Positions 58,386 to 62,115 of a stretch of DNA of 64,000 nucleotides are shown piece after piece. The position numbers and the translations under genes were made by a program. How positions within the stretch are numbered: position 1 is the first letter of the stretch; the number at the start of each line of letters is the position of its first letter. The DNA is from Clostridia bacterium (lineage in GTDB: Bacteria; Bacillota; Clostridia; Oscillospirales; CAG-272), in the NCBI GenBank assembly GCA_017453205.1, contig JAFTKO010000012.1, forward strand, positions 70,530-134,529, written 5' to 3'. Below the pieces are notes generated by a model that was not told the origin of the DNA, searched no databases, and worked only from the letters and a program-made list of their open reading frames with translations.

Positions 58386-58402
58386 TTTTGAATTGTTTTT
58401 TG

Positions 58403-58451
58403 TGGGGAAACTTTTTCAAAAGTTTCCCCACACCCATTTAAAAGTTTTCAC
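58403..58451 (+). repeat. intergenic hairpin-plus-tail repeat, copy 6
   Basis: T-run, then TGGGGAAACTTTTtcAAAAGTTTCCCCA, then tail CACCCATTTAAAAGTTTTCAC. Confidence 0.55.
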
Positions 58452-58540
58452 GCATTTTTATTGCGCTAAGACAAAGTTTTTTGACATCCGTTTCGATACT
58501 GTCTGATTTCAAAATAATTTATCACAAAGGAAAAATTACG

Positions 58541-59479
58541 ATGGAACTGCAAGAATTGCAAACAAAACTTGGAAAAAGAGCCGATCTGGAAGCCGAGCGT
58601 GACGCATGGCTTCAAAAGTGTACCGAGCTTGAGCAACGCTCGTACCGTGAAAAGCTGAATATGGAATATGAGCAATCCGATGTGGAGGCTTTGGAGGGAA
58701 AGACCCTAAAGGCGTTCCTATATACTGCTCTTGGCAAAAAAGAAGAACGCTTGGAGCAAGAAGAGCAGGAGGCTGATGAGGCAAAGCTGCAATACGAGGC
58801 GACATTGGGGGAGTTTGCCGATGCGCAAAAGCAGGTCAAGCGCATCGAGGCAGAGCTGCGTGCGCTGAAAAAGGCGGAACAGGACTATCAAAGCCTTGTC
58901 AAAGAGCAAGCGGAGCACCTCAAAGCCATTGAGCCGCTTCTTTCCGATGCCGATGCGCTGTCACTTTCGTCGTTACGCAAGGAGCTGGAAGAGGAACGGT
59001 GTAAGCAGGAGCACCTCGAACATGCGCTTGAGGAAGGAAATAAGCTTGCAAAATATGCAGAGAACGTGATGGAGTCACTCCGAAACGCTAGGGAAGAAGC
59101 CAAACATGATCGCTATATGGCAAGGGATGAGGAGCTGAATGAGGCACAGGAGCGTTTTAAACTCGTGCAGATTCAATTTCAGCGTTTTTACGAAGCGATG
59201 CCAGGTGCCGCAATGCGCCTTTCCGTTGATTTTCAGTTCAAGGTAAAAGGCGTTAGTTTTGATGAACAGCAAAGTGTTTTGGAGAATGCTTATCAAGCGG
59301 GTCAATATCCGATGAATGACGTGAATGTTGGTTATCCTTGGTTAAAAACGGAAGCCTTTGCAAGTAAGCTTCACGTTGTCTTGGGGGATTTGGATGAAGC
59401 GTTGGAGCTTACAAAGCGAAAGCAAAGCCAATTGGAGATAAGGCTTTCGGAGCTGTTGCAAAAATACCAAGCAATGTGA
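58541..59479 (+). CDS. hypothetical coiled-coil protein
   Basis: ATG 58541 (AAAGGA SD). 312 aa, highly charged with heptad-like E/K/L/Q-rich sequence. No family recognised. Confidence 0.55.
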   Translation: MELQELQTKLGKRADLEAERDAWLQKCTELEQRSYREKLNMEYEQSDVEALEGKTLKAFLYTALGKKEERLEQEEQEADEAKLQYEATLGEFADAQKQVKRIEAELRALKKAEQDYQSLVKEQAEHLKAIEPLLSDADALSLSSLRKELEEERCKQEHLEHALEEGNKLAKYAENVMESLRNAREEAKHDRYMARDEELNEAQERFKLVQIQFQRFYEAMPGAAMRLSVDFQFKVKGVSFDEQQSVLENAYQAGQYPMNDVNVGYPWLKTEAFASKLHVVLGDLDEALELTKRKQSQLEIRLSELLQKYQAM

Positions 59480-59519
59480 TCTATTTGCGTTTGATTAAAA
59501 ATTTTTTTGAAAAAAACTA

Positions 59520-59548
59520 TTGACAAATCCCTCCTTTTCATGTATAAT
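59520..59548 (+). promoter_or_regulatory. consensus sigma-A promoter of the DUF2325 operon
   Basis: TTGACA (59520-59525)-17 nt-TATAAT (59543-59548), with an A/T-rich UP-like tract upstream. Confidence 0.65.
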
Positions 59549-59556
59549 AAAGAAAA

Positions 59557-59707
59557 AAAGGTTAGCATACGCTAACCTTTGGTTTGAAACAAAAGTTAGC
59601 AGAAACTAACTTTTGAAAAGCGTATAAAAATACGTGAAAAACAAAAAATAAATTTAAAAATGCCGACCGGCATTCTTTTTTGAGAACAAGGTTAGCGATG
59701 GCTAACC
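59557..59707 (+). promoter_or_regulatory. leader with three GTTAGC/GCTAAC hairpin-palindromes and an internal terminator-like hairpin
   Basis: AAAGGTTAGCatacGCTAACCTTT at 59557-59580. AAAAGTTAGcagaaaCTAACTTTT at 59591-59614. AATGCCgaccGGCATT+CTTTTTT at 59659-59681. GGTTAGCgatgGCTAACC at 59690-59707. Confidence 0.55.
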
Positions 59708-59730
59708 AATAAATGGAAAAGGAGAAGAAT

Positions 59731-60018
59731 ATGAGTGTTGTGATTGTGGGAGGAAACGAATGTATGTCGCGCCGTTATATCGAGCTTTGCAAATCTTACA
59801 ATTGCAAAGCAAAGGTCTATCCTTTGATGAAAGGAGAAATGCGCGATTTTGGTACGCCGGACCTATTGGTACTTTTTACAGGGACTGTCTCCCATAAGAT
59901 GGTACATTGTGCCATGAGCAAAACGCGAGGCAAGGATACGCGGGTGGTACGCTGTCACAGTGCGTCGGTCACCGCGCTCAAAAGTATTATGGACGAACAC
60001 TGTGCACAGGAGGCTTGA
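59731..60018 (+). CDS. DUF2325 domain protein
   Basis: ATG 59731 (AAGGAG SD). MSVVIVGGNECMSRRYIELCKSYNCKAKVY...DLLVLFTGTVSHKMV. Family from memory. Confidence 0.72.
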   Translation: MSVVIVGGNECMSRRYIELCKSYNCKAKVYPLMKGEMRDFGTPDLLVLFTGTVSHKMVHCAMSKTRGKDTRVVRCHSASVTALKSIMDEHCAQEA

Positions 60019-60019
60019 G

Positions 60020-60565
60020 ATGTCGGAACGCATGCTCATTCAACATTGTTCTCCCACGTTGGCGGGGCTCAAAACCGGGAATTTGTTTTCCTGTTCCTAC
60101 CAAAACGTCCAAGAGATGCGCGCATGTCTGCGCACATTCAACCGCCGTCTTGGCAAAAAGGGGTTACGTGTTCTGCCTGTAAAGTATCATGAGGGGCGGG
60201 CGCTGATCTATGTTTACCGTCCCAAGCAGCTCGCACGGGATTTGTATGACGACTCGGCGCGGCAGATTCTCGGCGCGCGGGGATATTCCTGCGACAGTCC
60301 CGAAAAGTGTATTGTGCAATTGGTACGCCGCTTGCAGGCGGCAGAGGATTTTCCTCATGAGATCGGCTTGTTTCTCGGTTACCCGCCCGAGGATGTCAGC
60401 GGCTTTATCGAGGGCGCGGACTGTAAATACAGCGGTTGCTGGAAGGTGTACGGCGATGAGGAACAAGCCAAAGCACTGTTTGCAAAATACAAAAAATGTA
60501 CCGCGGTGTACGCGCGGCACTGGGAAAACGGCAGAACCATTGAGAAATTGACGGTGGGCGGGTGA
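60020..60565 (+). CDS. DUF3793 family protein
   Basis: ATG 60020 (AGGAGG SD, 1 nt after the upstream TGA). HCSPTLAGLKTGNLF and FPHEIGLFLGYPPEDVSGFIE...GCWKVYGDEEQAKALF. Family from memory. Confidence 0.72.
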   Translation: MSERMLIQHCSPTLAGLKTGNLFSCSYQNVQEMRACLRTFNRRLGKKGLRVLPVKYHEGRALIYVYRPKQLARDLYDDSARQILGARGYSCDSPEKCIVQLVRRLQAAEDFPHEIGLFLGYPPEDVSGFIEGADCKYSGCWKVYGDEEQAKALFAKYKKCTAVYARHWENGRTIEKLTVGG

Positions 60566-60658
60566 CTGCTGTATTAAAAAAGCCTTTGTGAAAACGAACA
60601 TGTTCCCTTGCCTCGGCATACACTGTGTTTGAAAATCCATTTTCAACGAGGTGCGTAT

Positions 60659-61150
60659 ATGTACAGAGGACAGGACTTTCCGCGCTTTTTGCCTATGATC
60701 CGTCAAAGACCGCAAGCTTGGGCGGAGCTGAAAGGGAATGAATTTTATCCCAACATCCGAGGGAATGTTCGCTTTTATCAAACGCGGTACGGTGCGATCG
60801 TCGTATCGGAGTTTTCGGGACTGCCGCAGGTGACCGAGAGCTGCAGGAGTCCGATCTTCGGATTTCATATTCACGAGGGAAACGATTGCGGCGGAACTCC
60901 CGAAAGACCGTTTGCCAACGCGCGTACCCATTATAATCCGTCGGGATGCAGACATCCGTACCATGCGGGAGATATGCCGCCCATCTTTGGCGCGAACGGA
61001 ATTGCATTTTCGGCGTTTTTGACCGACCGTTTCCGCGTGGATGAGATTGTGGGCAGAACCGTGATCCTGCACGATGCTCCCGATGATTTTACCACACAAC
61101 CCTCGGGCAACGCCGGAGCGATGATCGCTTGCGGCGTGGTACGAAGATAA
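60659..61150 (+). CDS. Cu/Zn superoxide dismutase-family protein, no signal peptide
   Basis: ATG 60659 (GAGGTG SD). GFHIHEGNDCG, THYNPSGCRHPYHAGDMP, ILHDAPDDFTTQPSGNAGAMIACGVV. Confidence 0.8.
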   Translation: MYRGQDFPRFLPMIRQRPQAWAELKGNEFYPNIRGNVRFYQTRYGAIVVSEFSGLPQVTESCRSPIFGFHIHEGNDCGGTPERPFANARTHYNPSGCRHPYHAGDMPPIFGANGIAFSAFLTDRFRVDEIVGRTVILHDAPDDFTTQPSGNAGAMIACGVVRR

Positions 61151-61160
61151 AGAGAAAAAA

Positions 61161-61197
61161 GAACCGTCGCACATTTTTGCGTGCTTCGGTTCTCTTT
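61161..61197. terminator. bidirectional terminator between the SOD-like and PAP2 genes
   Basis: GAACCGtcGCAC-atttttgc-GTGCttCGGTTC with an A-run upstream and TCTTTTT downstream. Confidence 0.62.
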
Positions 61198-62115
61198 TTA
61201 TAATTTTTTTCCTAACCTTGCAAAAAAACGAAAGCTCAAAGGCCAAAGCAGACCTGCCGTCAAGACCATGATGAGATAACGTACAAAGCCGCCTATCGAG
61301 GCACCAAACAGCGCATTGAGCGGTGTTTTGAGAAGCGACTTGATCAGAACGATGACGGCGAGTCCTCCAGCCACTTTTAAAATTTGCGCCCACCAAATGG
61401 CATGAGTCTCAAAGTGGATATATTTTTGATCGGTCGGATAGATCAAGCAGATACCTACGACCGCCGCAAACAGTTTCCATGCCACCTCTTTGGCATTGGT
61501 TAGGTTTACCGCGTCCACATCAGTGGGGAATTGCCACAGCTCCACATACAACAGGTTGCCAAGCGCCAGCAAAAACGCGCATGCGATGATGCCATACATT
61601 ATGCGTGGGTTTGTCCTCGCTCTTTCCATGATGGGGTAGATTACCAATACAAAAGCAGTACCGATGACAAGGGAAACCAGCACATCCTTGGGGGTGTGTA
61701 CGCCGAGGTACATTCTCGAAAACGCGATCAAAAGGAACAGCACCACACCGCCGACCTGTACCGCGCTCCGCTTGGACGAGCGTGCAATGCCGCCGTAAAG
61801 ATTGACGGCAATCTGTGTATGACCGCTGGGGAACGAATATCCCGTCGCTTCGGCTCGCGCACTTTCCACAATCGTGAAGTTTGGATCGAGCACCCAAGGG
61901 CGTGGGACGCGGAACATCATTTTCAAAAATTGAATGCAAACCGTCCCACAAAAGCCTGTAAACAGCAGATAATAGCCGCGGTGCTTATCCACGCACCAAA
62001 AAAAGGCGAGGGCAACGATCATAAAGAGCATTTCGGCGCCCAAATATGTGATACCGGAGATCAGTGCGTCCAAAAACGGCGTGCGAATACTTTCCAGAAG
62101 TTTTAGCAATTCCAT
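61198..62115 (-). CDS. PAP2-family phosphatase with a C-terminal multi-TM extension
   Basis: PSGHTQIAV and SRMYLGVHTPKDV motifs; 305 aa, about 8 TM segments. Confidence 0.8.
   Translation of the reverse strand: MELLKLLESIRTPFLDALISGITYLGAEMLFMIVALAFFWCVDKHRGYYLLFTGFCGTVCIQFLKMMFRVPRPWVLDPNFTIVESARAEATGYSFPSGHTQIAVNLYGGIARSSKRSAVQVGGVVLFLLIAFSRMYLGVHTPKDVLVSLVIGTAFVLVIYPIMERARTNPRIMYGIIACAFLLALGNLLYVELWQFPTDVDAVNLTNAKEVAWKLFAAVVGICLIYPTDQKYIHFETHAIWWAQILKVAGGLAVIVLIKSLLKTPLNALFGASIGGFVRYLIMVLTAGLLWPLSFRFFARLGKKL

Follow-up and report, generated by a model that had tools for sequence, protein, structure and literature searches.

The closest described counterparts of the regulatory element reported here are the operators of the DtxR family of winged-helix repressors. 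The canonical IdeR box, TTAGGTTAGSCTAACCTAA, is bound by two dimers, with one CCTAA repeat per monomer, and a single IdeR dimer binds a 14-base pair (bp) 'half site', TTAGGNNNNCCTAA (PMC8464063); the enterobacterial MntR box reads AACATAGCnnnnGCTATGTT (PMC1698941). Within this family, the sulfur ligands Met10 and Cys102 have been associated with selectivity for Fe(II) over Mn(II) (PMC11672702). An unrelated regulator, Fur, controls feoAB and flavodoxin in anaerobes such as Desulfovibrio and Clostridioides difficile (PMC545781, PMC6311696). Here we analyse the leader of an operon encoding DUF2325, DUF3793 and a Cu/Zn-superoxide-dismutase (SOD)-like protein, found in a 64,000-nucleotide (nt) stretch of contig JAFTKO010000012.1 of a Clostridia bacterium (hereafter the window), in which three palindromes of the form GGTTAGC-N4-GCTAACC surround an internal terminator-like hairpin. 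Their sequence, placement and genomic company argue strongly that they are operators, predicted to bind a homodimeric, two-domain, Fe(II)-sensing repressor of the DtxR/MntR family of about 120-130 amino acids (aa). If so, a large group of uncultured Clostridia from gut and rumen, whose iron control is usually assumed to go through Fur, would gain a probable iron sensor together with its operator and regulon.

The leader begins with a consensus sigma-A-type promoter on the forward strand (-35 TTGACA, 59520-59525; 17-nt spacer; -10 TATAAT, 59543-59548), which scores 12/12 and was the sole promoter-like match in a promoter scan of 58400-61400. The first operator, O1 (GGTTAGCatacGCTAACC, 59560-59577, in a palindrome that extends to 59557-59580), starts 11 nt past the -10 element and covers about +5 to +22, which places it in the promoter-proximal class of sites, where the gap from -10 to site is typically 6-7 nt and ranges from 3 to 16 nt. 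The second, O2 (AGTTAGCagaaACTAACT, 59594-59611, extending to 59591-59614), carries three mismatches to the strict pattern and an intact GTTAG-N6-CTAAC core; its start lies 34 nt from that of O1, a distance that is canonical for the motif in other loci. Further downstream, both a terminator scan and the minimum-free-energy fold pick out a hairpin on the forward strand, AATGCCgaccGGCATT, followed by CTTTTTT (59659-59681). With its G+C-containing stem and a U-tract directly after it on the transcribed strand, it has the make-up of an intrinsic terminator, with a short stem of 6 bp and three G-C pairs. The third operator, O3 (GGTTAGCgatgGCTAACC, 59690-59707), starts 8 nt past the end of the T-run and ends 23 nt before the ATG of the DUF2325 gene (59731), 11 nt from a Shine-Dalgarno (SD) sequence, AAGGAG, read on the same strand at 59719-59724. 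All three sites contain TTAG-N6-CTAA. The first-pass annotation of this leader had located the promoter, the palindromes, the hairpin with its T-run and the 23-nt distance to the start codon correctly. Exact matches to the core GTTAGC-N2-8-GCTAAC number two in the 64 kb, where shuffled sequence would give 0.02. When up to three mismatches are allowed, the whole window holds three sites, all of them inside 150 nt; at this tolerance it is the clustering that stands out, the count by itself (3 against 1.5 expected) not being significant.

The core of these predicted operators, TTAGC-N4-GCTAA, has the geometry of the single-dimer IdeR site and of the MntR box, so that the earlier statement that the motif belongs to no known operator class no longer holds. 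As in the IdeR/DtxR boxes of Actinobacteria, the half-site words TTAG and CTAA stand six bases apart, the candidate regulator belongs to the same Pfam families of homodimeric winged-helix repressors, its metal site is of the Met10/Cys102/Glu105/His106 type and its recognition helix keeps Ser37 and Pro39, and the sites lie at promoters of iron-uptake genes, repression of which is predicted here. There are also differences. The canonical IdeR box is a 19-bp arrangement of four overlapping repeats for two dimers, whereas here each site is one dimer-sized 18-bp palindrome and sites repeat at 34 bp; the inner base of the half-site is C (TTAGC) rather than the G of the IdeR/DtxR box; the Clostridial regulator lacks the SH3-like third domain; and a family described as prevalent in GC-rich Gram-positives and archaea is found here in anaerobic Firmicutes of low GC content. 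With the MntR box of enterobacteria and alpha-proteobacteria the motif shares a 7-4-7 inverted repeat, the words TAGC-N4-GCTA and a two-domain DtxR-family regulator, but the outer half-site bases are GGT instead of ACA, the ligands are of the Fe-type Met/Cys rather than the Asp/Glu kind, and the regulon comprises Feo, flavodoxin and DUF2325 instead of MntH. Fur regulons produce the same output, an iron-repressed set for ferrous-iron uptake and flavodoxin replacement, with a regulator of another, unrelated family and an AT-rich box that is unrelated as well. The switch itself is thus ordinary in kind, a known operator class in a subfamily for which we found no description in Clostridia; a literature search for a described Clostridial DtxR or feo operator returned none.

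The distribution of the motif was followed by two routes. DUF2325 homologues were traced to their contigs, and the flanking loci were fetched and inspected (L-numbers below are labels of fetched loci). Every orthologous locus fetched, from Oscillospirales-like metagenome-assembled genomes to Longicatena, has GTTAGC-N4-GCTAAC at 15-45 nt ahead of the ATG of DUF2325, and the motif is kept in three contexts, namely after feoB, before a solitary gene and at the head of a DUF2325-DUF3793-flavodoxin operon (Longicatena). In addition, a strict 18-mer scan with one genome per species gave at least 120 loci; the motif-locus counts that follow rest on the matches listed, among which 82 of 120 loci belong to Firmicutes, almost all of them Clostridia. 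In these 82 loci, sites called with at most two mismatches number 160, and 52 loci carry two or more. Only three of the 160 lie inside conserved open reading frames (ORFs), one of these being an artefact of ORF over-extension. The gene content was determined by all-versus-all clustering of ORFs, with clusters named by Pfam: FeoB was found in 35 loci, two kinds of FeoA in 33 and 27, ABC transporters in 24, the DtxR-family regulator 21, a FeoB-associated peptide 16, DUF3793 15, HMA 11, DUF2325 and flavodoxin 10 each, and ZIP 7. The first gene after a site (n = 77) is most often feoA (25) or feoB (17), followed by genes for DUF2325 (9), ABC transporters (8) and DUF3793 (6), and further by HMA, ZIP, flavodoxin and ferritin genes. 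MntH and MntABC are absent from the genes of the listed loci. Of the 14 DUF2325 genes in motif-bearing loci, 13 are preceded by a site at a distance of less than 150 nt, and DUF3793 is the partner of DUF2325 in most loci. In Clostridia, the motif marks an iron regulon. Of the checks proposed with the first-pass annotation, the motif search showed the sites to be almost all intergenic with iron genes downstream, and the comparison of sites showed conserved palindrome arms with no covariation.

A candidate for the protein that binds these sites emerged from the same loci. In 21 of the 82 there is a gene for a two-domain PF01325+PF02742 protein, typically divergent from the operator-bearing promoter. 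Among solved structures, the protein comes closest to E. coli MntR (3e-17) and DtxR (1e-11), and its best NCBIfam match is E. coli MntR, below the family cut-off. When aligned to DtxR, most site-linked members keep Met10, His79, Cys102, Glu105 and His106 and, in the recognition helix, Ser37 and Pro39, which contact DNA; the invariant alignment columns, in the regulator's own numbering, include M7, P36, S37, C98, E101 and H102. E. coli MntR has Asp and Glu at the Met10 and Cys102 positions. A reciprocal, motif-blind test was then made on 80 metagenome loci picked solely by similarity to the DtxR-family protein. These contained 74 sites against about 1.2 expected, and in 33 of 75 cases a site lay at most 300 nt upstream of the regulator gene. 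We therefore consider it quite probable that the Clostridial DtxR-family protein is the binder of the sites and that iron is the signal. The remark that no regulator gene is adjacent stands for the window, in which tblastn found none, and fails for many related loci. Four feo loci encode DtxR-like paralogues (L114:7188-7607, L073:341-742, L087:655-1086 and L105:4072-4467), three of them downstream of feoB, which lack the metal ligands, with Lys or Arg at Met10 and Leu-Ala or Val-Ser at Glu105-His106; instead of sensing metal, these may serve as accessory proteins like FeoC.

The placement of the sites relative to promoters points to DNA as the bound molecule. In other Clostridial loci, a promoter scoring at least 10/12 precedes 56 of the 160 sites, and in 36 of 57 promoters 6-7 nt separate the -10 element from the site, as is classic for a repressor that covers the start of transcription. 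A consensus promoter also stands ahead of the first operator in the closest relatives of the window operon, L132 and L136. Three sites (L040, L056 and L059) exactly fill the spacer between -35 and -10 (TTGACR-site-ATAAT) and are therefore untranscribed; some others lie upstream of -35. Of 27 pairs of adjacent sites, 22 have their starts 34 bp apart, a spacing shown by O1 and O2 too, and arrays reach four sites in a row with AT-rich 16-nt linkers (59560/59594 in the window; L109:3972-4091; L053, L093 and others). Among 133 oriented sites, about 131-133 share the same pairs 3-6 of the palindrome, while some 29% have an outer pair that is not Watson-Crick; double (compensatory) changes are rare, and the inner pair has almost none. 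The 4-nt loop varies freely and the half-site centres are 11 bp apart. A free loop combined with an 11-bp half-site spacing is the signature expected of a helix-turn-helix dimer on one face of B-DNA. The suggestion that the palindromes are operators of a dimeric repressor, the first at about +5 to +25, thus gains support from promoter placement in some 50 other loci, and further from the untranscribed spacer sites and the reciprocal association with the DtxR-family gene.

On this basis we propose the following scheme. The regulator, presumably encoded elsewhere in this genome, would bind iron and occupy O1 and O2 (about +5 to +52), blocking initiation or promoter escape. It would also occupy O3, located 8 bp past the terminator and before the ribosome-binding site, as a second checkpoint at the level of elongation, where polymerases that had passed the promoter would be stopped at or near the terminator and then released; we infer this roadblock role of the O3-terminator pair from their arrangement. 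When iron is scarce, the apo-repressor would leave, the strong promoter would fire and the short-stemmed terminator would presumably be read through in part, so that DUF2325, DUF3793 and the Cu/Zn-SOD-like protein would be made together with FeoAB, flavodoxin and the ABC and ZIP transporters. The two DUF proteins and a cytoplasmic Cu/Zn-SOD-like protein would thereby be placed in the iron-starvation response, a start for finding their roles, and the 18-bp motif appears specific enough for direct annotation of iron-regulated genes in metagenomes.

Several observations weigh against the proposal that an iron-sensing DtxR-family repressor acts here. The DtxR-family gene was not found in the 64-kb window by tblastn, so the regulator of this genome is assumed, and about half of the regulator-selected loci have no site within 3 kb. 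A period of 34 bp corresponds to 3.24 helical turns and would set neighbouring dimers on different faces of the DNA, a phasing that the model leaves unexplained, and O1 lies 11 nt past the -10 element instead of the usual 6-7. A downstream protein block may hinder the forward translocation that some terminators need for RNA release, and therefore the direction of any roadblock effect at O3 is uncertain. FeoB-like transporters can carry manganese in some bacteria. Finally, the identical 18-mer occurs in a TetR context in Actinomycetota, and therefore the sequence alone does not name its binder; in eight Clostridial loci, too, a site closely follows a tetR gene (tetR-site-ABC-ABC).

The manganese capacity of FeoB-like transporters would suit a reading in which family and operators are the same and the signal is manganese, as in an MntR-type regulon. 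The regulator's closest solved relative and its sub-threshold NCBIfam match are both E. coli MntR, which has two domains as well, and the operator has TAGC-N4-GCTA in common with the MntR box. We nevertheless regard manganese as an unlikely signal, for at DtxR positions 10 and 102 the regulator carries Met and Cys in place of the Asp and Glu of MntR, and the regulon includes flavodoxin, ferritin and FeoAB and lacks MntH and MntABC. A related operon, feoAABC of Faecalibacterium duncaniae, is reported to be repressed by ferrous iron, no regulator being named (PMC10781979), which fits iron as the signal indirectly, at the level of physiology.

The TetR contexts, for their part, raise the question of whether the sites are DNA operators of another regulator altogether, for instance a repressor of the TetR family or a factor so far uncharacterised, which might be DUF2325 or DUF3793; that no DtxR-family gene lies in the window and that a site precedes almost every DUF2325 gene are in keeping with this. 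In Actinomycetota the 18-mer lies between tetR (TetR_N + TetR_C_24) and genes for acyl-CoA carboxylase or dehydrogenase (L019:2992, L052:1511, L057:283, L078:6449 and L095:4732), with a second copy 5 nt further on in L095. This actinobacterial operator shares GGTTAGC-N4-GCTAACC and an intergenic position beside the regulator gene with the Clostridial sites, and differs in its regulator family, its acyl-CoA targets and the absence of iron genes; judged by sequence and context, it looks like convergence on the same palindrome. In Clostridia, an arrangement of tetR, terminator-like hairpin, site and two ABC exporter genes (about 600 and 580 aa) was seen in L045, L051, L054, L059, L077, L079 and L129 (two copies). 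The Clostridial and actinobacterial TetR proteins are, however, only about 30% identical over the generic N-domain and differ in the recognition helix; the Clostridial copies occur only beside ABC pairs, the site lies downstream of tetR and not at its promoter, and in L030 a DtxR-family gene takes the tetR position. The TetR family had been considered as the Clostridial regulator after the actinobacterial matches were found, and was judged unlikely. Pfam recognises no DNA-binding domain in either DUF2325 or DUF3793. Against any such regulator stand the link to the DtxR-family gene in 21 listed loci, upheld by the reciprocal motif-blind test, and the fit of operator geometry and Ser37/Pro39 to the DtxR family. 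We hold it improbable that a different protein family is the binder in Clostridia.

A further possibility is control through RNA. A factor bound to the palindromes, folded as hairpins, would govern the internal terminator, as the first-pass annotation suggested, or mask the ribosome-binding site, much like a riboswitch or an element of the iron-responsive (IRE) type. The leader does fold far better than its shuffles: its minimum-free-energy structure has z = -7 and forms a hairpin from every palindrome. In that structure, GGAAAAGG around O3 is the partner of the T/U-run at 59675-59681. Pairing of the U-run ahead of O3 with the SD region around the O3 hairpin is thus possible, and similar pyrimidine/SD pairs exist in L004, L006 and L008, but such complementarity is automatic for any U-tract with a purine-rich SD. 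Many sites lie 1-10 nt before an SD, including the intercistronic feoA-feoB sites. On the sense strand G.T pairs exceed A.C pairs (29 against 16), an excess that is not significant (p = 0.07) and is partly explained by sites whose final T doubles as the opening T of a -10 box. The sites that lie in a -35/-10 spacer or upstream of -35 are absent from the transcripts of those promoters, and the spacer sites largely refute the idea. The stem sequence is invariant and shows no covariation, and the variable loops and 11-bp half-site centres fit a DNA-bound dimer. The hairpin nearest the terminator lies downstream of it, and therefore the two cannot compete during transcription. A search of 59300-59900 against Rfam 15 (E up to 10) gave only weak, unrelated matches far below gathering scores. 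Control through RNA hairpins is accordingly very improbable, and the RNA-leader alternative offered for this locus can be set aside in favour of DNA operators.

That the palindromes play no part in regulation, having arisen by chance or within a small repeat or mobile element, would accord with the unremarkable number of matches at three mismatches in 64 kb, but is refuted to the point of being negligible by the comparative data, namely the excess of exact cores, the position conserved before orthologous genes across families, the near-complete exclusion from conserved ORFs and the fixed placement relative to promoters; a MITE/REP-type repeat was likewise ruled out by the position and context of the sites.

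Among the features of these predicted DtxR-type operators one may be new, the recurrent arrangement of a terminator-like hairpin with an operator just behind it. The analysis covered 56 internal sites, defined as those that are neither promoter-proximal nor followers in an array; O3 and the sites between feoA and feoB are examples. Of these 56, 35 have a T-run 4-20 nt ahead of them and 25 a strict hairpin plus T-run, against 13 (p = 5e-5) and 8 (p = 8e-4) respectively on the mirror side; other gene starts of the same loci, although searched over a wider window, show a hairpin with T-run in 25 of 116 cases. Operators near ribosome-binding sites, O3 among them, lie 4-10 nt after such a terminator-like hairpin and T-run. 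The hairpin occupies the same place with a different sequence in L132/133, L136/137, L130, L006 and L008, and the closest relatives, L132 and L136, keep the order promoter-O1-terminator-O2-SD with unrelated hairpin sequences. Inspection of the window and about 25 other internal sites revealed no consistent -10/-35 elements between terminator and site. In L008 (2915-3000) and in the region of L106:1165, a -10-like TATAAT is followed directly by a hairpin with T-run, then by the operator and an SD, the promoter itself having no operator; in these loci control may rest mainly or entirely on the terminator-operator pair.

These patterns suggest, tentatively, that a terminator with an operator 4-10 bp past its T-run could be a device in its own right, an iron-conditional terminator. 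Its apparent recurrence in Clostridial iron regulons, before feoB and the genes for DUF2325, DUF3793 and ABC transporters, is a possibility we put forward with similar reserve. A bound dimer of the DtxR type would halt RNA polymerase on or near the U-tract, whereupon the weak hairpin would release it, and release at this point would keep trailing polymerases from pushing through the roadblock; with no repressor bound, the same terminator would be leaky. The roadblocks formed by CcpA and CodY in Bacillus resemble this arrangement in having a DNA-bound protein inside the transcribed region, although to our knowledge no bacterial roadblock has been described as paired with an intrinsic terminator at a fixed distance. 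The eukaryotic RNA polymerase I (Pol I) terminator offers another parallel, with Reb1 or TTF-I bound just downstream (about 10 bp) of a T-rich release element; it differs in polymerase and in domain of life, and the coupling proposed here is drawn from sequence statistics alone. By analogy, the design could conceivably be a bacterial counterpart of protein-assisted Pol I termination. If true, it would be a compact way to make termination depend on a DNA-binding protein, of possible use in synthetic circuits.

The leader also contains a small perfect palindrome able to form a hairpin on the forward strand, GCGTATAAAAATACGT (59621-59636), between O2 and the terminator. It appears in the minimum-free-energy fold, is absent from related leaders and may lie outside the system. 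Upstream of the leader, the gene at 58541-59479 encodes a 312-aa Glu/Lys-rich, coiled-coil-like protein with no Pfam match. The operon downstream, all on the forward strand, comprises the gene for DUF2325 (59731-60018; 95 aa; PF10087, E 5e-27), its first, followed by those for DUF3793 (60020-60565; 181 aa; PF12672, E 5e-58) and, in third position, the Cu/Zn-SOD-like protein (60659-61150; 163 aa; PF00080, Sod_Cu, E 1e-23). A literature search for DUF2325 and DUF3793 yielded incidental mentions only. The Cu/Zn-SOD-like gene, for which L001 supplies a gene call, has no operator of its own, and its product shows no obvious signal peptide; it may serve as an iron-sparing substitute for iron-dependent oxidative-stress enzymes. 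In relatives, the third position of the operon is held by flavodoxin or by nothing in place of the Cu/Zn-SOD-like gene.

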